A stretch of 64,000 bases of DNA from Candidatus Saccharimonadota bacterium (lineage in GTDB: Bacteria; Patescibacteriota; Saccharimonadia; Saccharimonadales; Saccharimonadaceae): NCBI GenBank assembly GCA_027492735.1, contig JAPUEE010000005.1:65719-129718 (forward strand), given 5' to 3'. The notes under the pieces are model-generated. The model had not been told where the DNA came from and searched no databases. It worked only from the letters and a program-made list of their open reading frames with translations. The position numbers were made by a program, and so were the translations under genes. This document shows positions 11,437 to 63,007 of this stretch, piece by piece. Every line of letters begins with the position of its first letter. Position 1 is the stretch's first letter.

Positions 11437-13026
11437 ATGGGTAAAATAAATACCAAATATATTTTCGTGACCGGAGGAGTCCTGTCAGGCGTCGGGAAAG
11501 GCATCACAGCCGCCAGCATCGGCGCTATTTTAAAAGGTAAAGGCTTCAAAGTTTCGATGCAAAAATGTGATCCATATCTTAATGTTGATGCTGGACTACT
11601 AAATCCTGTTGAGCACGGTGAATGTTTTGTGACACGTGATGGTGCTGAGACGGATCTCGATCTAGGGCATTACGAGCGTTTTCTAGACGAGGAAACGACG
11701 CGTAATTCAATTACCTTGTCAGGCAAATTATTCCAAGATTTGATAGCCAAGGAACGGTCAGGTGGTTTTCATGGCCAAACGGTGCAACTGGTGCCACATT
11801 TAACAGATGCTATTCACGAGGCTATTAAAAAGGCTTCCGAAGGATCGGATATTCATATTTGTGAGATCGGCGGCACGGTTGGCGATTATGAGGGTCTCAG
11901 TTTTGTCGAAGCAATTAGGACGTTTGCCAATCTCGTTGGTCGTGAAAACTGTCTCTACGTGTCAGTTCTCTATGTACCGTTTCTCTCTACTAGCAAAGAA
12001 TTCAAAACCAAACCTGCTCAAAATGCATTAAAGGATCTGCGCGGCTTCGGTATTATTCCAGATATCGTGGCAGTCCGTTTGGAAAAACACGCTGGTCGCA
12101 ATGTTGCTGAGAAAATCGCTAAATTTGCAGGCATAGAGAGTGACGCAGTTATTCTGTTGCCTGACGCTACATCCGTGTATGACGTACCTCTCCAGGTTCG
12201 TGACAGCGGTGTATTGAATGTATTGAATCGATTTGTCGACAGTGACAAAGAACCTGATATGACCGCGTGGGAAGCATTGAGCCAGAGAGTTGGCATGAAA
12301 AAAGATCAGACAGTGACTGTTGGGCTAGTGGCAAAATATGTTGATAACGAGGATACGTATTTCTCTGTCACTGAGGCGCTAAAATCAGCGGCGTTTGCGT
12401 CGGGAGTTAATTTGGAAATCAAATGGCTGAATGCAGAGAAAGTGACGAGCGAAGATTTTGATGCAGTCGATGGATTGTTGGTGCCGGGCGGTTTCGGTAC
12501 CCGAGGTACCGAGGGCAAGATCGCGGCGGCAGACTATGCGCTCGAGCATAATAAACCCTATCTAGGCCTGTGCCTAGGTTTGCAAATGGCAGTGGTTGCG
12601 GCGGCGCGGCGCGGCGGCCTCGCCAGAGCTAATTCCGAGGAATTTGATGACAAAACACCAGAGAATGTAGTGTACATTATGGCTGACCAAAAGGGCAAAG
12701 AATCTACTGGCGGGACTATGAGATTAGGTGATTATCCTGCACACCTACAATCGGGTAGTTTGGCAGAACGGGTGTACGGCGCTCGTGATATCGTTGAACG
12801 TCATCGCCATCGTTACGAAGTAAATCAGAAATTCTTGCCTGAAATTGAGGCAGGCGGAGTAGTGGTGAGTGGTGCTAGCCCAGACGGCAAGTTAGTGGAG
12901 TTCATCGAGGCTCCAGACAGTACGTTCTTTGTCGCAACCCAGGCGCATCCAGAATTTCGCTCGCGCCCGACACGTCCACATCCGCTGTTTGCTGCATTTA
13001 TCGAATCGTTAAAGGAGGTATCATGA
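11437..13026 (+). CDS. pyrG: CTP synthase
   Basis: 529 aa. N-terminal KYIFVTGGVLSGVGKGITAASIG and a C-terminal glutaminase domain with GLCLGLQ and HRHRYEVN motifs. Confidence 0.95.
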   Translation: MGKINTKYIFVTGGVLSGVGKGITAASIGAILKGKGFKVSMQKCDPYLNVDAGLLNPVEHGECFVTRDGAETDLDLGHYERFLDEETTRNSITLSGKLFQDLIAKERSGGFHGQTVQLVPHLTDAIHEAIKKASEGSDIHICEIGGTVGDYEGLSFVEAIRTFANLVGRENCLYVSVLYVPFLSTSKEFKTKPAQNALKDLRGFGIIPDIVAVRLEKHAGRNVAEKIAKFAGIESDAVILLPDATSVYDVPLQVRDSGVLNVLNRFVDSDKEPDMTAWEALSQRVGMKKDQTVTVGLVAKYVDNEDTYFSVTEALKSAAFASGVNLEIKWLNAEKVTSEDFDAVDGLLVPGGFGTRGTEGKIAAADYALEHNKPYLGLCLGLQMAVVAAARRGGLARANSEEFDDKTPENVVYIMADQKGKESTGGTMRLGDYPAHLQSGSLAERVYGARDIVERHRHRYEVNQKFLPEIEAGGVVVSGASPDGKLVEFIEAPDSTFFVATQAHPEFRSRPTRPHPLFAAFIESLKEVS

Positions 13027-13268
13027 GTAAAAAATCAGCTATCGAAGGCGAAGTTGTAGAGCGAAAGTCTACGACAAACAATGGTTCAAAAACCACCAAA
13101 ATAAATGGCATCGTAGCTATACTCATCGTTGTCATAGCGATCGGTATTATAGCCTTTGTTTTGAAATTTGTTGTTGGACTGCTGGCAGTGATATTGCAAT
13201 TTGTGATTATCGCGGCAGCACTTGGTCTGGTTGGACTCATAATCTATAACTTTGTAAAAGGAAAATAG
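13023..13268 (+). CDS. Small membrane protein, hypothetical
   Basis: 81 aa. ATGA overlap with the pyrG stop. Two hydrophobic helices. Confidence 0.5.
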   Translation: MSKKSAIEGEVVERKSTTNNGSKTTKINGIVAILIVVIAIGIIAFVLKFVVGLLAVILQFVIIAAALGLVGLIIYNFVKGK

Positions 13269-13547
13269 GTGAATTCAGACAATAACCAACCAACTAATCA
13301 ACAGCCGATTCAGGTAGTTATCGAACCAACCACGAAAAAGACAGGACTTCGGATAGGATGGGTAATCGTAGGGCTGGTGTGTTTGATGGCAGTGTGCATA
13401 GTGATTGGTAGCACGATTAGTCTACTGGCTCCACAATATAACGAAGCTCTTGGATACAGCTTGGCAATTGGGATGAGCTTGGCGGCGGTTGCTGGCGTCA
13501 TTATTGCTATCATTCAGGATGTAAAACGAAAGAAAGGTACAAAATGA
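13269..13547 (+). CDS. Small membrane protein, hypothetical (GTG start)
   Basis: 92 aa, starting immediately after the previous stop. Two hydrophobic helices. Its stop overlaps the pyrH start. Confidence 0.5.
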   Translation: MNSDNNQPTNQQPIQVVIEPTTKKTGLRIGWVIVGLVCLMAVCIVIGSTISLLAPQYNEALGYSLAIGMSLAAVAGVIIAIIQDVKRKKGTK

Positions 13548-14248: not shown

Positions 14249-14261
14249 TTTCCATGGGGTG

Positions 14262-14289
14262 CCCCTCGATCAGTAGTTCGATCGAGGGG
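14262..14289. terminator. 10-bp perfect hairpin between pyrH and the convergent island gene
   Basis: CCCCTCGATC-agtagttc-GATCGAGGGG. Weak T tract follows on the + strand (gttcgcgtctttc). Confidence 0.45.
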
Positions 14290-14356
14290 GTTCGCGTCTT
14301 TCGGTAGGGTCACCGTGATGTGGGTTTTTCCCATCTACTTGACGCTTCCCGCACTT

Positions 14357-14701
14357 CTAGGCTGCCACCCGCTTGGCTGCCTGCTTCCGGCCACGGGCCG
14401 GGTACTTCTGGTGGTGAACCTTGCGGCTCACTGTCGAGGTCCGGCCGAACCAGCCTTCAGTCTGGGCAATCTTGCCCGACTTGATGGCGGCGTCAACGGC
14501 CGCACGGACGGTGGTGGAGAATTCGCCGCTTCGGTAGTCGCCGAGCTGGCGATTCCGGTTGTGAACCTCTCCGGCTAGGAATCGAACCAGCTCACGGCGC
14601 GAGTTGGCACGAATGGCTCCGCCGAACTTCGTGAACACTGCCAGGACTCGTCTCTCGGCGATCCGGATCTGCTCATCGGTTGGCTCGAACTCTTTCACCA
14701 C
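14357..14701 (-). CDS. Hypothetical basic protein (island 1), GTG start as drawn
   Basis: 114 codons with high GC3 and a Lys/Arg-rich C-terminus (KYPARGRKQAAKRVAA). The start is uncertain because of the upstream C10 tract and mini-ORF. Confidence 0.5.
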   Translation of the reverse strand: MVKEFEPTDEQIRIAERRVLAVFTKFGGAIRANSRRELVRFLAGEVHNRNRQLGDYRSGEFSTTVRAAVDAAIKSGKIAQTEGWFGRTSTVSRKVHHQKYPARGRKQAAKRVAA

Positions 14702-14715
14702 CTTCCGATTGCTAC

Positions 14716-14725
14716 GGGGGGGGGG
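14716..14725. repeat. G10 homopolymer (C10 on the coding strand of the island-1 basic protein leader)
   Basis: Ten consecutive G counted directly. A +1 or -2 length change fuses the upstream mini-ORF to the 114-codon ORF. Confidence 0.9.
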
Positions 14726-14903
14726 TATGGCTGGACGATGCGTATGACGTCATCGCTCATCCTCCTCATTCTGTTGTTGTGCGGTGCACCACGTCGTCCT
14801 AGCTGGATTGCCAGGCTATCCGGTGGTGAGATAACTATAAATAGATAATATACTATTGTCAAGCAGTAGCGTAATCACCAGTGTAAACGCGCAACAGTAT
14901 TTA

Positions 14904-14932
14904 TTGACATAAACGTATTTGTATGCTACAAT
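14904..14932 (+). promoter_or_regulatory. Near-consensus promoter TTGACA-17 nt-TGcTACAAT driving the island-1 plus-strand operon
   Basis: TTGACA at 14904-14909, 17-nt spacer, extended -10 TGcTACAAT at 14924-14932. It lies in an AT-rich patch inside the GC-rich island. Confidence 0.6.
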
Positions 14933-15066
14933 AGTAAGCCATTGATCAGACAGCGAACTGGTCAAAGTAGTATTTACGTAGAACTTTTACATAGTAGGAG
15001 GTTTTGAATCTTTCCGATGTGTTATTTCCGCGTTTTTCGTGCGATAGTACACCGGGAGGGTTCGAA

Positions 15067-15411
15067 ATGGACTCACCTGGACAATCCATCGGAAGGAAGA
15101 CGTTGAAACGCTGGATACAAGGCCTAGCCCAATTGATGGGCATCTTCGTGGCCCTCGCGGCCATGAAGCTTGTATTGTTGGTTGACCGCCTAGTACGCTG
15201 GGCGGCCGATCAAAAGTCGCTGGTGGCCTTTGTGGCCATCAGCGTCGTACCGGTGCTGTTTTTCCTCGCAGTCGTGTTCGGCCTTTGGGCCGGGTACGAG
15301 TGGGGAATTATCGCGCTGCTCGTAGTTGCGGCTGGTGGCTCTATTGCTATCTTCGCGCTCATAATGACCGCGGGCCGACTGGTCCGCGCTGACTCGGAAG
15401 CGAGGAGATAA
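15067..15411 (+). CDS. Small polytopic membrane protein (island 1, gene A)
   Basis: ATG at 15067 preceded by GGGAGGG. 114 aa with about 3 TM helices and high GC3. The track ORF begins at TTG 15004. Confidence 0.55.
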   Translation: MDSPGQSIGRKTLKRWIQGLAQLMGIFVALAAMKLVLLVDRLVRWAADQKSLVAFVAISVVPVLFFLAVVFGLWAGYEWGIIALLVVAAGGSIAIFALIMTAGRLVRADSEARR

Positions 15412-15412
15412 C

Positions 15413-15655
15413 ATGACATTGCGAAAGGCGATGGGCCTCTGGTGCAGTCTGTTACTTGTCCAAATGGCTCTGGTAGCCTCAGTTCACGCGAGTACCGATC
15501 ATTACTCGAGTGAGGCTGTCGCCACATTTGATGTATTTGCTGCAATATCCGTTGCGATTGTTCTCGTGTCGGCCACGCTTAGCGTGGTTTGGACAAGGCG
15601 AGAAGCAAAACGGGCAGGTCAATCAACCCACATCAAACCGAGAGAAGGAAAGTAA
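15413..15655 (+). CDS. Small membrane/secreted protein (island 1, gene B)
   Basis: 80 aa. GAGGAG lies 7 nt upstream. Signal-like N-terminus plus one TM helix. Start is 1 nt after the gene A stop. Confidence 0.6.
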   Translation: MTLRKAMGLWCSLLLVQMALVASVHASTDHYSSEAVATFDVFAAISVAIVLVSATLSVVWTRREAKRAGQSTHIKPREGK

Positions 15656-15882
15656 TGATGCGAACGTCAAAATTCCTGGTATGGACTTCGCCAATAACGA
15701 TCTGGGCTGGAGCCGTCTGGGCTGTCGTAGCCGGGATCAACGGAGCCAGCCTCGGCGAGGCCACCGGCATTTTCGGCTGGTTTTTCCTCACCTTCATCAC
15801 CCAGATTCTCGCGGCGATCGCACTTTACGTGATCGCCGAGAAAGAGGAGGAGGCAAGGCGCCGCGGGGTCTGGACGTGGTGA
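15655..15882 (+). CDS. Small 2-TM membrane protein (island 1, gene C)
   Basis: 75 aa. TAATG overlap with gene B. Upstream GAGAGAAGGAAAG. High GC3. Confidence 0.6.
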   Translation: MMRTSKFLVWTSPITIWAGAVWAVVAGINGASLGEATGIFGWFFLTFITQILAAIALYVIAEKEEEARRRGVWTW

Positions 15883-16145
15883 GAGATCACGAGGAACGGC
15901 AAGCGCGCCGTCGACATGACTCCGCCGTGGGCCTGACCGTCGCGGTCGGGTTCACCGTTCTCTGGCTGGGTTTCCGGCCCGAGTGGTTCGGCATTGCGCC
16001 GGATACCATGACGTTCTGGTTCATCCGCCTGGTGGCGGTGATCTTGATCGTCTGCGCGATTAGCTGTGGAGTCCGCATCCACCACAATCGCAAGTCCAAG
16101 TCCAAGGCCGAGAGCGATCTTGGCCTCCCTCCTACAACGCGCTGA
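15879..16145 (+). CDS. Small 2-TM membrane protein (island 1, gene D), GTG start
   Basis: GTGGTGA overlap with the gene C stop. 88 aa with two hydrophobic helices and a basic tail. The upstream part of track ORF 15510..16145 is Arg-rich out-of-frame read-through of genes B and C. Confidence 0.5.
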   Translation: MRDHEERQARRRHDSAVGLTVAVGFTVLWLGFRPEWFGIAPDTMTFWFIRLVAVILIVCAISCGVRIHHNRKSKSKAESDLGLPPTTR

Positions 16146-16197
16146 CGCCCCTGTCAGCGTCTCCCTCGAAAGAGGTGAGGAATCAACGGGGCAACAA

Positions 16198-16222
16198 GCC
16201 CGGCCATACACCATGGCCGGGC
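16198..16222 (+). terminator. Perfect 10-bp hairpin at the right end of island 1
   Basis: GCCCGGCCAT-acacc-ATGGCCGGGC. A second hairpin GCTGAC-gcccct-GTCAGC spans the gene D stop (16141-16158). No strong T tract. Confidence 0.5.
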
Positions 16223-16304
16223 ACACCCCTTGAATAATTGAATTTATTACTGATATTTGGTGGCGAATCTAATGGTTTAAGAGTCGATCGACTACTGTCG
16301 ATCG

Positions 16305-16313
16305 TGATACAAT
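16305..16313 (+). promoter_or_regulatory. Extended -10 (TGaTACAAT) 6 nt upstream of the argS ATG (leaderless configuration)
   Basis: The -10 element ends at 16313 and the ATG is at 16320. No Shine-Dalgarno is possible. Confidence 0.55.
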
Positions 16314-16319
16314 AGAGAT

Positions 16320-18158
16320 ATGAATTATTATGCTGATATAGTGGCTCGTACCGTCAAAGCCCTTTTTGATGTTGACATAACTATCAAGCTATCTCAACCG
16401 GACCCCAAGTTTGGTGATGTTGCAACAAATATAGCATTACAGCTCGCTGGACGTCTCGGTGAGAGTCCGCGGGAGATTGCTGAGACTATTGCAAAGGAGT
16501 TACATAGCAGCGGTGAGTTTCTGGATGTTACTATCGCGGGTCCGGGCTTTATTAATATGCGAATAGCGGCGAAACGGCTCAACAATACACTCGAGCAGGC
16601 TTTTGCTAGCGAAACGCCGTTTGGTAACAATAACGATGGCGTAAACAGAGTTGCTGTTGTTGAATATCCAAGTCCTAATATGGCGAAACCGTATAGCGTC
16701 GGACATTTGCGCAGTGGCAACCAAGGCTGGGCAGCCCGCAATTTATTGATGGCAACGGGATGGCAGGTGATAACTGACGATCATTTAGGTGATTATGGTG
16801 CGCCGTTCGGTATCTGGGTGGTTGGTTTCAAGGAGTTTTCATCCGAGGAGCAGTTGGCTGAGGGTGGGGTATATGAACTTGGTCGAGTCTATATTGAGAC
16901 CCGTCAGGCTATGAAAGACGAAGCTGAACGCGGTGAACAGCAACTAGCGGACCGGGCACAAGATTGGCTATTAAAATTAGAAAACGGCGATCCCGAGGCG
17001 GTCGAACTATCGGAAAAATTCAATGCTATTTCGCTCGAACACATCCATACTGTTATGCAGCGTCTAGGCATATCGACAGATTATGAATATGGTGAAAAGT
17101 TTTTTGCGCCCTATGGTAAAAAATGTGTACAGGACCTACTAGCGCAGGGCATTGCAACGCAAAATGACGATGGCTCGGTGATTGTTGATCTGTCAGATCA
17201 GGGAATCGATACGCCTCTTCTCATCCAAAAGAGCAATGGTGCCGCCCTCTATGCGACGACGGATCTCGCAACCATTTTGTGGCGCGAGGAGCATTGGCGA
17301 CCGAGCAAAGTTGTCTATTCGGTTGGTGCTGAACAAAAATTTTATTTTGAACAGCTAGCAGCCCTCGCGAAAAAACTCGGTATTGAAACGGAGCTGTATC
17401 ATCTGTGGTTCGGTACTATCGATCAGATAACCGAAGACGGTAAACGCGAAAAGATGTCGAGCCGCAAAGGTGTCGTGCTGATGGAGGAATTACTCGACGA
17501 AGCCGAGAGAAAGGCACGAGCCAATACGAAGTCAGAGGATATGACCGACCAGGACATTCGAAAGATTGCTGTTGGTGCGATCAAGTTCAGTGATTTCGCT
17601 GCTGATCGACGAACCGGTATGTTGTTTAACTGGGATACAATGTTTAGCCTGACAGGATTCTCCGGCCCCTATATTCAGTATGCTGCCGTCCGTATCAACA
17701 AGATTTTGCGGGATAATGGGATAGAATTGGCGACATCGTCAAATTCGTTATTCTGGGAGGCTCGCGAGGACGGCGAGCGCGTCAGCGACGAGCCCTGTGA
17801 CGACTACTCGCGCGCTGATCGGAAAGATCAGCCTTCGTCGGAAAAGTCTGCTCCGTCTATTGAATCACTGCAGAACAACGACTATGATTTCGAATCTGAA
17901 AAATCTTTACTATTGAAACTCATGGAATATCCAGAAACAATTTCTGTAGCCGCTCGCGAGCTCGAGCCGCACCGCGTAGCGAACTATGTGTATGAGTTAG
18001 CGCGCGAGCTCAATCGTTATTATGAGCAGACTCCGGTAGCAACAAAAGAAGTGCCGGATGATATTAAACAGGCTCGCCTAGGCTTACTCGTGAAAGTGTC
18101 GACAGTATTCGAGCACGCGCTCGGCATCTTGGGCATTGAAATTCCGAGTCGTATGTAA
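16320..18158 (+). CDS. argS: Arginine--tRNA ligase
   Basis: 612 aa. Class I HIGH-type motif (PNMAKPYSVGHLRS), MSSRKG (KMSKS-like) and a C-terminal DALR-type anticodon-binding segment (EPHRVANYVYELARELNRYYE). Confidence 0.95.
   Translation: MNYYADIVARTVKALFDVDITIKLSQPDPKFGDVATNIALQLAGRLGESPREIAETIAKELHSSGEFLDVTIAGPGFINMRIAAKRLNNTLEQAFASETPFGNNNDGVNRVAVVEYPSPNMAKPYSVGHLRSGNQGWAARNLLMATGWQVITDDHLGDYGAPFGIWVVGFKEFSSEEQLAEGGVYELGRVYIETRQAMKDEAERGEQQLADRAQDWLLKLENGDPEAVELSEKFNAISLEHIHTVMQRLGISTDYEYGEKFFAPYGKKCVQDLLAQGIATQNDDGSVIVDLSDQGIDTPLLIQKSNGAALYATTDLATILWREEHWRPSKVVYSVGAEQKFYFEQLAALAKKLGIETELYHLWFGTIDQITEDGKREKMSSRKGVVLMEELLDEAERKARANTKSEDMTDQDIRKIAVGAIKFSDFAADRRTGMLFNWDTMFSLTGFSGPYIQYAAVRINKILRDNGIELATSSNSLFWEAREDGERVSDEPCDDYSRADRKDQPSSEKSAPSIESLQNNDYDFESEKSLLLKLMEYPETISVAARELEPHRVANYVYELARELNRYYEQTPVATKEVPDDIKQARLGLLVKVSTVFEHALGILGIEIPSRM
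17759..17816 (+). repeat. GC-rich in-frame mini-insertion, copy 1 (in argS)
   Basis: CTCGCGAG ... CTCGCGCG bounded patch encoding AREDGERVSDEPCDDYSRA. It matches the ychF patch at 39/51 nt by hand alignment. Confidence 0.6.
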
Positions 18159-18176
18159 CCGTAGTTATTCGCGATA

Positions 18177-18185
18177 TGCTATAAT
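18177..18185 (+). promoter_or_regulatory. Extended -10 (TGcTATAAT) 7 nt upstream of the ATG at 18193
   Basis: Exact TGnTATAAT. Leaderless spacing. Confidence 0.55.
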
Positions 18186-18192
18186 AACTCTC

Positions 18193-18657
18193 ATGAAGCA
18201 TAACCAAAAACATGCATCGATCAGTATCCTAAAAAACAGTCTCATGACAGTGTTCGTGATGCTATCAGCGGTGGTAGGGGCTAATGCTATGATGCCGACA
18301 AATGCGTCAGCGGCGGCATGCAAAACTGATACCGACAGCAACCTCTTCTCGTTCCCAACCTGGTATCGTGGGCTATGTGAGGACTCTAACGCTGACAAAG
18401 TCAAGATTGACGGAGGCTCTCCGGCTGACATTGTATTTGTTATCGCATTGAATCTCATCGATATCGCTCTTCGTATCGTAGGAATAATAGCAGTTGGCTA
18501 TCTGATTTACGGTGGTTTCCGTTTCGTAACTTCTCGTGGTTCGCCCGATGAAACAAAGAAAGCGCAAGATATTATCCTAAAGGCTGTTGTTGGTCTCGTT
18601 ATCGCTATTCTCTCGGCTGTGATTGTCAGCTTTGCTGTATCTCGACTGAACCCATAG
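18193..18657 (+). CDS. Small secreted 2-TM protein, candidate T4SS pilin (TrbC/VirB2-like)
   Basis: 154 aa. Signal peptide ending ANAMMPTNASAAA, then Cys-containing FPTWYRGLC. Two hydrophobic helices flank GGFRFVTSRGSPDETKKAQD. Topology matches VirB2-type pilins. Family call is tentative. Confidence 0.5.
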   Translation: MKHNQKHASISILKNSLMTVFVMLSAVVGANAMMPTNASAAACKTDTDSNLFSFPTWYRGLCEDSNADKVKIDGGSPADIVFVIALNLIDIALRIVGIIAVGYLIYGGFRFVTSRGSPDETKKAQDIILKAVVGLVIAILSAVIVSFAVSRLNP

Positions 18658-43118: not shown

Positions 43119-43353
43119 TGTGATCAGTCTAGTCGAAAACGACTGGAGGTTTCGGTTGAGTTTTGTGAAACGAGGTGTCCTACGGTGTTGCCCCTAGGGG
43201 TGGCATAGATGGGAGCTGCCGTTTCGCGCGCTCCCGTTTTGACAATTTGTTCATCTTTATATTCATGACACACCCGAAGTCTTTTGTCGTTTTCGAATGG
43301 CGAAAAGTCCACGGGGAGGTCTCGTGGCAATCGTTCCAATGAAAGGGGACGGT

Positions 43354-45534
43354 ATGAGAAAGTTGGTAGGACTGGCCTGTGCGCTGGTCCTCACGGTGCT
43401 CGGGGTCATCGCCCCGGCATCAACCGCGTCCGCCCATCAGGGCAACATCAAGGTCTCGGACACGCAGTGCGTGGACGGGAACTCGATGAAGGCCACCTAC
43501 ACCGTAGGTTGGTCCAACGGCACCGGTAGCGGCAAGCTCTACACCAAGAGTGGGCTGTACAGCGGTGGCACGTCAACGTCCGGGTGGGACTTCGAGAAGA
43601 ACGTCTCCGGCGCGTCCGGCAGCGCGTCCTTCACGAAGACCCACACCTTCTCGGGCTCCAACGGCCCGTGGGTGGCGTTCAAGATCATCTTCGACGACAA
43701 CTACGTGGTCGGCGGAGATACCCGCGTCGAGGGCTGGGATTGGGACAAGTGCAAGCCTGCACAGCCTGATCCCAAGACCGTCACCGATCACGAGGAGAGC
43801 TGCAAGATGGCCATGCCGTCGGGCAAGCTCGGTGGCGAACGTGACCGCACCGGTACTCAGGCCTACGTCTGGAACGGATCCAGCTGGGTGCTCGGCGACA
43901 CCATCAAGTGGGGCGACTGGAAGTACACGCCCTACACCGACAGTCAGTACTTCAGCAAGTGTGCCGGGGACAATCCCGGCCCGAAGTACAGCGAGTGGTC
44001 ATCGTGGTCCAACGAGCAGCCGACCTGCGAGAGCACGATGGTGACGCAGACCCGGACGCGCACGAAGACCACTTACACCTGGGTCTGGAACGGCATGAAG
44101 GATCGTGGTGACTGGGTCGTCGATGAGGTGACCGAGGACAAGGAGACCCGCAAGGTCGAGATGTCCGACAAGGACTTCGCGGCCAACTGCAAGCCCGACC
44201 AGCCGGCGCCCAAGGCGCACACCGATTTCCAGAAGGGTTGCACCCTGAACGACGTCGGCGGCACCGCCACTAGGAACGGCACCGAGGCCTACAAGTGGGA
44301 CCTCGAGGATCGCAAGTGGGTCCTCAGTGGCAAGATCGACTGGCAGGACTGGGTCTTCACGGCCTACACCGACCAGGAGTTCCAGGCCAACTGCGCAGGT
44401 TCTCCCGAGCCCGACAAGGTCGTGGTGGACAAGGGCGAGTGGGTCGGGCAACCGACCTGTGATGCTCCCTCGATCTACCAGACTCGCGAGGTGGTCACGA
44501 CGACCACCAAGCAGGTCTGGAACCTCGATCTCCGCAAGTGGGAGTGGGGGACGCCGACCTCGGTAACCACCACGGAGACCGCCAAGAAGCCGACCGAGCT
44601 GACCAAGGATCAGATCAAGGCCTGCCATCCCAAGGATGCGCCGACCTTGGCCTACACCGGTCAGACCTGCACCGTTGGTGATCAGGGAGTCGGCCAACTT
44701 CACGGCGGCAGCCTGACGGTTACCAGCAGCGGCTGGACCGTCAAGGTCACCGACAAGGACGGGAAGGTCGTCAAGGACCTGACCGATCTCGATCCCGGCA
44801 ACTACACCGTCACGGCCAGCCTGGCCGATCCTGACGGTACCTCGGCTGGGAACATCGACGGCTGGACTCCGGGCGAGGACGGCACGATCAGCCAGATCGT
44901 CAACATCGCCACGGCGGACGACTGCACCATTCTCGAGCCGAAGCCCCGCGTGGAGCCCAAGGTCGAGGAGAAGCTCGAGTGCGACGGGGCCTACCGCCGC
45001 ACCTGGGATCTGGTCAGCTATCCCGTCTGGAAGGACGGGGAGTGGACCTTTGACGGGGTCGAGCCCAAGGTCGAGAACGAGACCGAGTGGAAGAAGTTCC
45101 GCGAGCTGTCGAACGACGAGTGGTTGGCCGCTGGCTGCCGCTCTGACCAGCCGCCGGCTCAGGTTCGTGTGATCCACGACCAGGGTTACAACTGTGATGG
45201 ACTCTGGGGTCGTACCCAGACCGGTACCACCGAGTACGTGTGGGTATGGTCCGGCATGGCCGACCGTGGCAGCTGGGTCCTCGGCGACGAGGTGCTCGGC
45301 GACTGGAGCGAGTGGACGTTCGTCCGCGAACTGACCAAGGCGGAGAAGGCGGAGTTGGGCTGCAACAGCACCCCGAATTCGCCGAATCAGCCGAAGGTGC
45401 CCCCAGTAGACGAGGACAACAGCGATGGCGTTCGCGCCGCCGCTGACCCTGCGCCGCTCATTGGCCTGGGTGTTCTCGCCGCGCTCGGCATCGCCGGTGC
45501 AGTCATTGCCATCCGGCGCCGCCGTCAGGCATGA
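43354..45534 (+). CDS. Secreted Cys/Trp-rich repeat surface protein with C-terminal TM helix + RRRR anchor (no LPXTG)
   Basis: ATG at 43354 after GAAAGGGGA. Signal peptide MRKLVGLACALVLTVLGVIAPASTASA. Six modules of about 55-70 aa are bracketed by Cys and rich in Trp/Tyr. C-terminus is DPAPLIGLGVLAALGIAGAVIAIRRRRQA. Confidence 0.8.
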   Translation: MRKLVGLACALVLTVLGVIAPASTASAHQGNIKVSDTQCVDGNSMKATYTVGWSNGTGSGKLYTKSGLYSGGTSTSGWDFEKNVSGASGSASFTKTHTFSGSNGPWVAFKIIFDDNYVVGGDTRVEGWDWDKCKPAQPDPKTVTDHEESCKMAMPSGKLGGERDRTGTQAYVWNGSSWVLGDTIKWGDWKYTPYTDSQYFSKCAGDNPGPKYSEWSSWSNEQPTCESTMVTQTRTRTKTTYTWVWNGMKDRGDWVVDEVTEDKETRKVEMSDKDFAANCKPDQPAPKAHTDFQKGCTLNDVGGTATRNGTEAYKWDLEDRKWVLSGKIDWQDWVFTAYTDQEFQANCAGSPEPDKVVVDKGEWVGQPTCDAPSIYQTREVVTTTTKQVWNLDLRKWEWGTPTSVTTTETAKKPTELTKDQIKACHPKDAPTLAYTGQTCTVGDQGVGQLHGGSLTVTSSGWTVKVTDKDGKVVKDLTDLDPGNYTVTASLADPDGTSAGNIDGWTPGEDGTISQIVNIATADDCTILEPKPRVEPKVEEKLECDGAYRRTWDLVSYPVWKDGEWTFDGVEPKVENETEWKKFRELSNDEWLAAGCRSDQPPAQVRVIHDQGYNCDGLWGRTQTGTTEYVWVWSGMADRGSWVLGDEVLGDWSEWTFVRELTKAEKAELGCNSTPNSPNQPKVPPVDEDNSDGVRAAADPAPLIGLGVLAALGIAGAVIAIRRRRQA

Positions 45535-45583
45535 TGTGAGAAGATGAACAAGTGCGAACTGCCAGCCAGGTAGCTCGCTCCCT

Positions 45584-45622
45584 GGGGTCTGATCTTGTCG
45601 CTCTCGCGACCGATCAGACCCC
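45584..45622 (+). terminator. Long hairpin plus T-rich tail after the surface protein gene
   Basis: GGGGTCTGATC ... GATCAGACCCC with inner GTCGC-tctc-GCGAC, followed by tcttctcatttc. Confidence 0.6.
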
Positions 45623-45679
45623 TCTTCTCATTTCTGGGGACAAAGATGTATAAAAATATTTTACAAAAAACACTAAATG

Positions 45680-45688
45680 TGATATAAT
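45680..45688 (+). promoter_or_regulatory. Extended -10 (TGaTATAAT) in the AT-rich spacer upstream of the sortase-like gene
   Basis: Exact TGnTATAAT, about 90 nt before the ATG at 45779. GAAGGTGG Shine-Dalgarno at 45763-45770. Confidence 0.55.
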
Positions 45689-45778
45689 AGAAAGTGCGCC
45701 TAGCAACAGATGCAAATCTGACTGGGCTTACCTCGAAGTAATCAATCTATCCATAATCCACAGAAGGTGGTGAACGTA

Positions 45779-46477
45779 ATGAAGCGCACAGTACTTGCCA
45801 TGCTTTGCCTGGCGGTGAGCGCCGCGTCGCTGTTCGGTGCCTTCTGGTACTGGAACAACGTCTACGCGGAGATCGAGGTCCCGATGGCCCCAATTCCGTC
45901 GCCAACGGTATCGTCGATCACGGTGCCGGTGAACGACGACGAGAAGCTCCCGCCGGTCGACATGCCGGAGAACCCTCGCGGCAAGCTAGATCACCTCGTT
46001 ATCTACCACGGTGGCAAGGCCATCGTCTCGATGGATTTCGGTCCAGCGACCTACGATTCCCTAGGGTGGGGATCCGAGTGCGGCAAGGTGGCCTATCGCG
46101 ACCGCGACGACTTCCCAAAGCCTGGTTTCGCCAGCAAAAACCGTTCGCTCGTGTCAGGTCACGTCTGGTGTGATAGGGAAACCTATACGCTAAACGATCT
46201 GGACAAGGTTCGGAAAGGTGACCGGGTTGAGGTCTACTACTCGTCCGGAGACGTGGCGGTAGGTCAGGCTGAGGCCGACGCCGCCGCCCTGCCGAAGGAC
46301 GAGCTGAATGCTGAACACAAGGGTCAGGTCAACCCCCGGCTCCGCAACAGCAAGAAGCTACGGACGATGCGAGTCAGTACCTGTGACACTGACTCGCCGG
46401 TGCGGGCGAACGGCCACTTGTCGGCCAACGTCTACGTACTGTACACGTTCAAGGAAATCAGATTTGCCGAACAGTAG
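45779..46477 (+). CDS. Membrane-anchored sortase-like transpeptidase (class E/F-like)
   Basis: 232 aa. N-terminal TM helix. His motif SLVSGHVW, then DKVRKGDRVEVYYSSGDV, Cys motif TMRVSTCDT and NVYVLYTF, in the order and spacing seen in actinobacterial sortases. High GC3. Confidence 0.6.
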   Translation: MKRTVLAMLCLAVSAASLFGAFWYWNNVYAEIEVPMAPIPSPTVSSITVPVNDDEKLPPVDMPENPRGKLDHLVIYHGGKAIVSMDFGPATYDSLGWGSECGKVAYRDRDDFPKPGFASKNRSLVSGHVWCDRETYTLNDLDKVRKGDRVEVYYSSGDVAVGQAEADAAALPKDELNAEHKGQVNPRLRNSKKLRTMRVSTCDTDSPVRANGHLSANVYVLYTFKEIRFAEQ

Positions 46478-62930: not shown

Positions 62931-63007
62931 GTCCCGCTAGCTCAATTGGATAGAGCAGTTCCGTCCTAAGGAAAAGGTTGTAGGTTCGACTCCTACGCGG
63001 GATACCA
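62931..63007 (+). tRNA. tRNA-Arg (anticodon CCU), CCA encoded
   Basis: Hand fold. Acceptor stem is GTCCCGC/GCGGGAT (first pair G-U) and D stem is GCTC/GAGC. Anticodon loop is gtCCTaa. T arm is GTAGG-ttcgact-CCTAC, followed by discriminator A and CCA. TACAAT box ends 8 nt upstream. Confidence 0.85.

Follow-up and report, generated by a model that had tools for sequence, protein, structure and literature searches.

The DNA examined here is a 64,000-nucleotide stretch (the window) of contig JAPUEE010000005.1 from a Candidatus Saccharimonadota bacterium, and the element in question is a small island of atypical base composition at positions 14,250-16,230, between pyrH and argS. The island holds five small open reading frames (ORFs) in two divergent units: a leftward gene for a basic protein with a predicted winged-helix fold, and a rightward operon of four small membrane-protein genes, here called O1 to O4 (Table 1). 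The flanks carry pyrG, two small membrane-protein genes, pyrH, argS, a type IV secretion system (T4SS) pilin gene and a class II ribonucleotide reductase gene, and pilM as well as the T4SS pilin gene lies near the island.

G+C makes up 56.4% of the island and 46.4% of the remaining window with a second island (43,297-46,477) left out, and the mean of the whole window is 47.6%. An initial annotation of the DNA had described an island of about 2 kb, which is confirmed, and its figure of roughly 60% G+C fits the coding parts, with 63% for the winged-helix gene and 58% for O1 to O4 together; 37 of the 60 nucleotides from 15,241 to 15,300 are G or C. The core of the divergent intergenic region (14,800-15,000) has only 37% G+C, and the non-coding flanks are also elevated, with G+C fractions of 0.56 at 14,249-14,356 and 0.65 at 16,146-16,230. 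The compositional anomaly sits at the third codon positions of the called frames. The G+C content at these positions (GC3) is sharply bimodal across all ORFs of the window and exceeds 0.6 only in this island and in the second one.

The four ORFs of the plus strand are present as first annotated, together with their junctions TAAcATG (15,409-15,415), TAATG (15,653-15,657) and GTGGTGA (15,876-15,882) and the perfect 10-bp hairpin that closes the operon, and the description of four small, tightly coupled integral membrane proteins of atypical composition is well supported. An integrase, relaxase or phage structural gene had been reported as absent; there is no room for one inside the island, and no island protein matches one. 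For the 114-codon basic protein, the minus-strand location and the basic character stand, but the ORF is only the downstream part of a gene of about 131 codons.

Table 1. Features of the island in window coordinates, with GC3 of the coding regions.
Feature	Position	Strand	GC3	Remarks
Perfect 10-bp hairpin, CCCCTCGATC-N8-GATCGAGGGG	14262..14289	.		between convergent pyrH and winged-helix genes
Winged-helix gene, ~131 aa, basic disordered N- and C-terminal tails	14357..14753	-	0.76	frame-shifted in the window
Homopolymer, G10 on the plus strand, C10 on the gene strand	14716..14725	-		within Thr-Pro-Pro-Arg codons; length varies between strains
Two-tier hairpin: P1 CCAC/GTGG, internal loop, P2, AAUC-like apical loop	14778..14828	-		5' end of winged-helix mRNA
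Winged-helix promoter, TTGACA-17-TATAGT	14834..14862	-		predicted; 11/12 consensus positions
Operon promoter, TTGACA-17-TACAAT with TG extension	14904..14932	+		predicted; 11/12 consensus positions
Structured leader, ~165 nt to O1 start	14942..15074	+		hairpins 14942-14965 and 14998-15074
O1, ~102 aa, ~3 hydrophobic segments	15103..15411	+	0.68	conserved TTG start, MKRW…
O2, 80 aa, signal-peptide-like N-terminus and one further hydrophobic segment	15413..15655	+	0.48	native-like GC3; known from open frame and coupled junctions only
O3, 75 aa, two hydrophobic segments	15655..15882	+	0.74	in some relatives only
O4, 89 aa, charged N-terminus, two-helix membrane hairpin, 1-2 hydrophobic segments, basic C-terminal tail	15876..16145	+	0.77	best alignment from GTG 15,876
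Perfect 10-bp hairpin closing the operon	16198..16222	+		no U-tract
Reference: 17 long genes of the window			0.457 ± 0.033	maximum 0.51

The winged-helix cassette

The ORF listed for the leftward gene (14357-14701) starts at a GTG and comprises 114 codons. The start that corresponds to that of the sister proteins is the ATG at 14,753, behind a strong and invariant GAGGAGG Shine-Dalgarno sequence; the N-terminus of the sister proteins, MTSYASSSHTPPR…, lies 17 residues upstream of the listed GTG. An exact look-up of the window's 114-aa product returned no record, and scans against Pfam, PHROG, NCBIfam and PADLOC gave the winged-helix protein no match above the curated cut-offs. Searches of 5.8 billion and 1.84 billion proteins found only unnamed metagenomic relatives; an exhaustive profile search of the latter set yielded only 31 representatives at E<1e-3, all of about 100-175 aa. 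A scan of a genome collection with the family alignment added 104 pattern matches, none of which was confirmed.

The fold is assigned from structure prediction. The AlphaFold2 model is confident (mean predicted local distance difference test score, pLDDT, 86.6) and has the layout H-E-H-H-E-E (helix, H; strand, E), with the basic tail at low confidence. The top Foldseek neighbours in PDB and BFVD are all generic winged helices with probabilities of up to 0.98, but at E≥0.04, and a profile search of PDB sequences with the protein returned nothing below E 0.3. As such, a winged-helix fold is indicated by a confident model and by its neighbours, with no specific subfamily assignable. The layout and the basic disordered tails recall linker histones H1/H5, winged helix-turn-helix regulators and SelB; unlike these, the protein has no hit at E<0.03 and belongs to no named sequence family, and the comparison leaves DNA and RNA undistinguished as the ligand. 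In most members of the family a basic stretch precedes a C-terminal -AA or -A (…RVAA, …RRAA, …RYAA). Such ends resemble the ssrA-like degrons on which ClpXP acts and would point to regulated proteolysis. The protein would bind nucleic acid and might control its own expression through the hairpin in its 5' untranslated region (5'-UTR).

Upstream of the listed GTG the gene runs through the homopolymer of Table 1. In related contigs, given here by L numbers, the tract has either nine residues on the gene strand (C9; L004, L039, L040 and L043), which keeps the frame, or ten (C10; the window, L041 and L046), which breaks it: the C10 version reads MTSYASSSHTPPP before a stop, that is, a stop after 13 codons. 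GTG 14,701 lies 19 nt after this premature stop and is a possible restart point. Two pairs of near-identical contigs, L040 and L041 (99.8% identity over 9,752 bp) and L043 and L046 (99.97% over 7,713 bp), each contain exactly one gap, and in each pair this single gap is explained by the C9/C10 difference. The tract is either hypermutable or a recurrent assembly error. If it slips, C9/C10 slippage would switch the cell between full-length protein and none, or an N-terminally truncated one restarted at GTG 14,701.

The tract has two of the marks of a simple-sequence contingency gene, a homopolymer of at least 8 nt in the 5' coding region that alters the frame and a length polymorphism between near-identical strains. 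The case resembles the poly-G/C contingency loci of Neisseria, Haemophilus and Campylobacter in its early tract of 9-10 nt, its one-nucleotide difference between near-identical strains and its frame switch. It differs in that the protein is a predicted nucleic-acid-binding protein, not a surface or restriction-modification protein, and in that the comparison is between strains only. No such tract in Saccharibacteria was described in the titles and abstract openings consulted, and literature searches on GC islands or phase variation in Saccharibacteria gave nothing relevant.

The spacer between the units is 350 bp long, and when the whole region is shuffled the promoter scan counts 1.5 ± 1.3 promoter-like sites. 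Judging by the back-to-back, near-consensus sigma-70-type promoters predicted there, the island appears to form two independent transcription units. The winged-helix promoter is kept in sister contigs and in distant homologues, while the -35 and -10 of the operon promoter are invariant across six contigs and also occur in L047.

Immediately downstream of the winged-helix -10 starts the two-tier 5'-UTR hairpin. Its stems change between lineages yet stay paired, with CCAC/GTGG becoming GTCGC/GCGAC and CTGG… becoming CTGAC or CGTCGC. In the alignment, 85.7% of cells are paired against 20-40% in register-shifted controls; six of the 11 pairs are changed on both sides, and none of 500 shuffles reaches the observed values. 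Six of the seven sequences fold this way individually, and several G·U pairs favour an RNA over a DNA palindrome. The hairpin has, over seven sequences, the two-sided changes and the excess over shifted controls that mark a structured cis-regulatory RNA. A covariance model (R1) matched 14 of the 35 sources searched, with a single site in each locus and a family member downstream of it in every case. R1 has no match in L034 and L035; L032, L033, L036 and L037 retain promoter and hairpin, and L034 has neither. A regulon defined by this hairpin was considered and rejected, as R1 finds no further copy in the window. Rfam offers no family even at a permissive threshold, the best scores being 17.6-20.1 bits against gathering scores of 46.9-55.1.

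The cassette closes with the perfect hairpin at 14,262-14,289. This hairpin is kept in L004, L040 and L043, which carry the winged-helix gene, and is absent from L005 and L047, which do not, and it belongs with the cassette. It has no T-run and was not called by the terminator scan, and so does not have the form of a canonical intrinsic terminator. The leftward unit is a self-contained cassette of promoter, covarying 5' hairpin, Shine-Dalgarno sequence, gene and closing hairpin that is present or absent as a block.

The membrane-protein operon

The rightward unit begins with a structured leader. Its long hairpin (14,998-15,074) has 27 predicted pairs, many of them retained through G-C to G-U changes and one changed on both sides. 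An invariant unpaired AGGAGG (14996-15001) stands at the foot of this hairpin, and a second such sequence, GGGAGGG, is buried in the stem. In the shorter, 5'-proximal hairpin (14,942-14,965) the stem sequence differs between lineages, with pairing still possible as judged by eye. The core blocks of the leader are also conserved in L047. A leader peptide was considered and rejected, since no start codon after the first AGGAGG is conserved across relatives.

Both leaders invite comparison with 5'-terminal stem-loops and stabilising Shine-Dalgarno (STAB-SD) elements such as the ompA leader and the cryIIIA STAB-SD, and with the autoregulatory leaders of ribosomal-protein operons. The hairpins start only a few nucleotides from the predicted transcription start, and in the O leader no conserved start codon lies near the conserved AGGAGG, which resembles a Shine-Dalgarno sequence, as in STAB-SD-type stabilisers. 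Unlike those systems, the loops here are sequence-conserved and without an Rfam family, and the elements are known from sequence alone. The conservation of the loops suggests a binding partner.

O1 has homologues in L001, L004, L005, L039, L043 and L047 at 36-82% identity, with ratios of non-synonymous to synonymous divergence (dN/dS) of 0.28-0.74; an alternative ATG at 15,067, giving 114 codons, is in frame only in the window and one sister contig. A metagenome scan with the O1 alignment gave 342 pattern matches, none confirmed. For O2 none of the fetched loci offers a homologue; the ORF has either arisen recently, by insertion or gene birth, or is no real gene. O3 has homologues in L001 and L043-L046 at 40-48% identity (dN/dS 0.34-0.58). 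For O4, 11 homologues were found, all at the site between pyrH and argS where the context is known (dN/dS 0.18-0.45), and its N-terminus has an invariant RR, extended to RRRH in most. The AlphaFold2 model of O4 is poor (two long helices, pLDDT 65).

Scans of the five proteins against Pfam, PHROG, NCBIfam and PADLOC, with a 55-aa upstream ORF included for Pfam and PHROG, turned up nothing beyond hydrophobic matches below threshold. Among these, O4 matches NrsF and PspM (Rv2743c) weakly. PspM belongs to the mycobacterial ClgR-PspA-PspM envelope-stress system, and the likeness lies in a charged cytoplasmic N-terminus followed by a two-helix hairpin, with the faint hits spanning PspM residues 3-71. 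However, O4 reaches 14.9 bits against a cut-off of 27.7 (PF25587) and 16.4 bits against 80 (NF047839), and no PspA or ClgR gene lies nearby.

The closing hairpin of the operon (16,198-16,222) is conserved in all relatives examined. In L047 the stem is changed on both sides with the pair kept, as judged by eye (GCCCGGTC...GACCGGGC vs GCCCGGCC...GGCCGGGC). It too was not called by the terminator scan and, with no T-run, does not correspond to a canonical intrinsic terminator. The O proteins would assemble into a small envelope complex whose make-up depends on the strain.

The locus in related genomes

Related contigs were reached through homologues of the winged-helix (basic) protein and of O4. 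The nearest species representative, L005, is a Candidatus Saccharibacteria metagenome-assembled genome (MAG) with the same gene order and identities to the window of 88% for pyrH, 74% for pyrG, 75% for argS and 93% for the ribonucleotide reductase. The order pyrH, winged-helix gene where present, small membrane genes and argS was found in L001, L004, L005 and L039-L047, that is, in every related contig recovered that spans the site, among them lineages in which identity to the window's O1 and O4 falls to 27-36%. More distant Saccharibacteria, with pyrH 55-63% identical, have neither pyrG nor argS within 10 kb of pyrH.

A survey of sister genomes had been suggested with the initial annotation, and it separates a constant from a variable part. 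O1 and O4 stand between pyrH and argS in every relative spanning the site; the winged-helix cassette, O2 and O3 vary. L004 and L039 have O1 and O4, L001 and L043 have O1, O3 and O4, and L005 and L047 have O1, an unrelated middle gene and O4. The number of O genes thus ranges from two to four, O3 being found sometimes and O2 in this window only, which has all four. From L005 and L047 the whole winged-helix cassette, hairpin at 14,262-14,289 included, is missing.

The winged-helix gene also occurs elsewhere, and the family contigs examined all lie among Saccharibacteria-type housekeeping genes. In L032 and L033 it is divergent from argS and beside a cluster of pyrG and small membrane genes, an equivalent slot without pyrH and the O genes; other members lie upstream of rpsO (L037) or beside mscL (L034). 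These members have GC3 values of 0.68-0.79 against 0.37-0.58 for their neighbours. At the site between pyrH and argS, the island genes of the relatives have values of 0.56-0.83 against 0.43-0.60 for the neighbours, with those of L047 lowered to 0.56-0.67. High GC3 accompanies the island genes wherever they are found.

Pairwise dN/dS is 0.17-0.33 for the winged-helix gene and 0.17-0.74 for the island genes as a set, against 0.02 for pyrH. On these values the island genes, O2 excepted, are constrained by purifying selection, yet they change about 10 times as fast as the housekeeping genes around them. In the comparison of the window with L004, synonymous divergence (dS) is 0.29 for the winged-helix gene, 0.47 for O1, 1.28 for pyrH and 1.55 for O4, and the rank order of identity among contigs differs from gene to gene. 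Variable gene content together with discordant divergence of segments indicates that the locus recombines. The adjoining argS is itself mosaic (window 16320-18158; L039 1328-2974, L040 and L001): the versions are 32% identical overall and 77% identical over the first 50 residues, which indicates that the catalytic body has been replaced, with a breakpoint inside the N-terminal domain. Contigs with the divergent argS have a pyrH 94-95% identical to that of the window. Among singleton polarised synonymous changes, the island genes have 16 from GC to AT and 5 from AT to GC, a small count in which parsimony inflates common-to-rare changes, against 64:74 in pyrH and pyrG.

One relative carries an actinobacterial name. 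L046 (GCA_050258475.1, JBLMYV010000034.1) is labelled Sphaerimonospora mesophila (Actinomycetota) at NCBI; its G+C content of 52% and its 99.97% identity to the Saccharibacteria-type contig L043 mark it as mislabelled or mis-binned and hence as no actinobacterial homologue. It is probable that a contig of Saccharibacteria origin was placed in an actinomycete MAG during binning, which could reflect co-abundance of epibiont and host.

Several further observations concern the surroundings. The second GC3-atypical island (43297-46477) encodes a 745-aa protein (GC3 0.85) without a Pfam match, followed by a 236-aa sortase-like protein (GC3 0.76). The former has faint below-cut-off matches to models of C-terminal sorting signals at residues 711-744, and the latter has weak below-cut-off matches to the Pfam Sortase domain and a class-F sortase model; the pair looks like a surface protein and its sortase, with the same compositional signature as the first island. 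Between pyrG and pyrH, 13023-13547 holds two coupled small membrane-protein genes (81 and 92 aa) of native GC3 (0.37-0.42), and the 81-aa protein resembles, as judged by eye, the N-terminus encoded by the small gene that follows pyrG in L032 (s82), a distant Saccharibacterium. Upstream of argS, an extended -10 TGATACAAT (16,303-16,311) ends 8 nt before the ATG at 16,320 and no Shine-Dalgarno sequence is evident. The mRNA from which argS is translated may thus have no leader or almost none; the string TGnTACAATAG is common to this -10 and to that of the O operon. The T4SS-pilin gene (18136-18657; PF18895, E 3.7e-9) starts inside the last argS codons, and in L043-L045 genes with LysM and RCC1 repeats are inserted between the two.

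Origin and role of the island

The evidence is best explained, at a probability of about 0.6, if the island is a chromosomal accessory locus of one clade of Saccharibacteria (TM7) and not a recently landed foreign element. Of the features usual in genomic islands, atypical composition is present. Mobility genes in or beside the island are missing, with five small ORFs without a Pfam, PHROG or NCBIfam match between pyrH and argS, and patchy presence with empty sites was not observed, O1 and O4 being in place in every relative. No boundary direct repeats of at least 12 nt were found, and the window has a single tRNA gene, at 62,931. Several points weigh against this explanation or parts of it. 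An accessory locus does not by itself account for GC3 values of 0.7-0.8 in a background of 46%. Furthermore, a homopolymer error that recurs in assemblies could account for the C9/C10 difference, the 5'-UTR hairpin is based on seven distinct sequences with modest individual z-scores (-0.5 to -2.6), and the idea of a membrane complex draws only on coupling, co-occurrence and topology. The O genes stand without the winged-helix gene in L005 and L047 and the winged-helix gene without the O genes in L032, L033 and L037, which leaves a regulator-target relation between them unsupported.

That the island might be an assembly chimera, or a GC-rich non-coding spacer with chance ORFs, gains some colour from the spurious ORFs that such DNA yields on both strands here, for example 15,825-16,226(-) and 15,210-15,545(-). 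It is effectively refuted by the same junctions and gene order in over 10 assemblies that different studies produced independently; the ORFs behave as real genes, being kept in sister genomes with dN/dS below 1 and a rise of GC3 in the called frames (O2 excepted). The origin proposed in the initial annotation, as the leftover or passenger of an actinobacterial conjugative plasmid, actinomycete integrative and conjugative element (AICE) or actinophage with Spd-, holin- or exclusion-like proteins, has more to recommend it. On such a reading the DNA would have come from the high-GC host. The cultivated hosts of Saccharibacteria are Actinomycetota, the GC3 of 0.68-0.77 stands out in a sharply bimodal distribution, the 16:5 excess is what amelioration predicts, and O4 faintly matches mycobacterial PspM/Rv2743c at E 0.0065-0.02. 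The 16:5 count is, however, small and inflated by parsimony, and the PspM score of 16 bits compares with cut-offs of 28-80. Neither blastn with the island nor tblastn with the winged-helix protein, O1 and O4 found a match among 72,556 plasmids and 50,697 phages, no actinobacterial homologue appeared among 5.8 billion proteins, and PHROG, PADLOC and Pfam gave nothing above cut-off. The borders lack an integrase, a TraB-like gene, attachment-site (att) repeats and a tRNA gene, and the island keeps one chromosomal site across lineages in which the O proteins have diverged to 27-36% identity. Likeness to the spd strings of Streptomyces conjugative plasmids and AICEs extends to the succession of short, hydrophobic ORFs that overlap one another in DNA of high G+C content; unlike these, the locus has no TraB/FtsK-like gene, rep, int or att, no relatives on plasmids and a conserved chromosomal context. 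Phage holin, antiholin, spanin and superinfection-exclusion cassettes likewise share small proteins with one to three transmembrane segments and coupled translation, but no endolysin or other phage gene is present, and PHROG returned only matches at E≥0.009 to families of unknown function. The spd and holin analogies are ones of gene size and hydrophobicity only. A recent actinobacterial mobile-element origin is improbable and the least supported option, while an older acquisition from a high-GC donor, to which the high GC3 and the 16:5 flux could point, is conceivable.

A real contender, although clearly less likely than an accessory locus, is that these are native, fast-evolving Saccharibacteria genes whose GC3 is kept high by a continuing force, such as GC-biased gene conversion (gBGC) at a recombination hotspot or selection on mRNA or DNA. 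Winged-helix members only 26-45% identical, at different loci, all have GC3 values of 0.68-0.81, and at such divergence simple amelioration should have erased the signal. Moreover, the locus is recombinogenic, with discordant dS, gain and loss of cassettes and a mosaic argS adjoining, and the elevated G+C reaches the non-coding flanks. Against such a force, the 16:5 excess towards AT argues against equilibrium, GC3 in L047 falls to 0.56-0.67, and the reported effects of gBGC in bacteria amount to a few per cent of GC3 and not 0.3. The ribosomal protein genes beside one family member are not GC3-rich either (S20 0.37, S15 0.55), which makes translational selection unlikely, and this cause was rejected. 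Far less likely than a continuing force, and doubtful even beside a mobile-element origin, is a defence, exclusion or toxin-antitoxin-like module in which membrane-damaging peptides are checked by a labile DNA-binding regulator. Small hydrophobic proteins, strain variability, a divergent regulator-like gene with strong predicted promoters and the ClpXP-degron-like -AA or -A termini would fit such a module. PADLOC, however, has no match, the winged-helix gene is found without the O genes and vice versa, and O1 and O4 are kept in every relative, unlike the genes of typical defence islands.

The accessory locus thus remains the preferred explanation, and it may be extended in two directions. Saccharibacteria are reduced epibionts on other bacteria, and little is known of which unannotated small proteins matter for this lifestyle. 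In such an organism a host or phage interface would be the likeliest role of an envelope complex, and a role of the O proteins at this interface is tentatively suggested by their fast change and by cassette turnover in an attached epibiont. A bolder picture, which we consider rather unlikely as a whole, combines a Saccharibacteria-specific winged-helix cassette, with a new 5'-UTR RNA element and a slipping poly-C tract, beside a hypervariable operon of small membrane proteins that tunes the envelope to given hosts or phages, the high GC3 being upheld by a continuing process (exchange through a shared high-GC pool or gBGC) and not left over from one old transfer. If this is true, the winged-helix gene would be, as far as we know, the first contingency locus of the simple-sequence kind to be reported from a genome of the candidate phyla radiation (CPR)/Patescibacteria.

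To summarize, the locus offers no evidence that a CPR genome harbours an actinobacterial mobile element. It combines strain-variable accessory genes, an unannotated winged-helix family, a candidate cis-regulatory RNA and a candidate contingency tract, and its value lies in three oddities: GC3 that persists across a gene family, a covarying leader and the C9/C10 polymorphism. The 64 kb hold just two places of sharply atypical GC3, and this one, retained by the clade and reshuffled between strains, with strong predicted promoters and structured leaders, is a reasonable candidate for strain-specific envelope or host-interface functions and a compact test case for the persistence of compositional islands in streamlined genomes.

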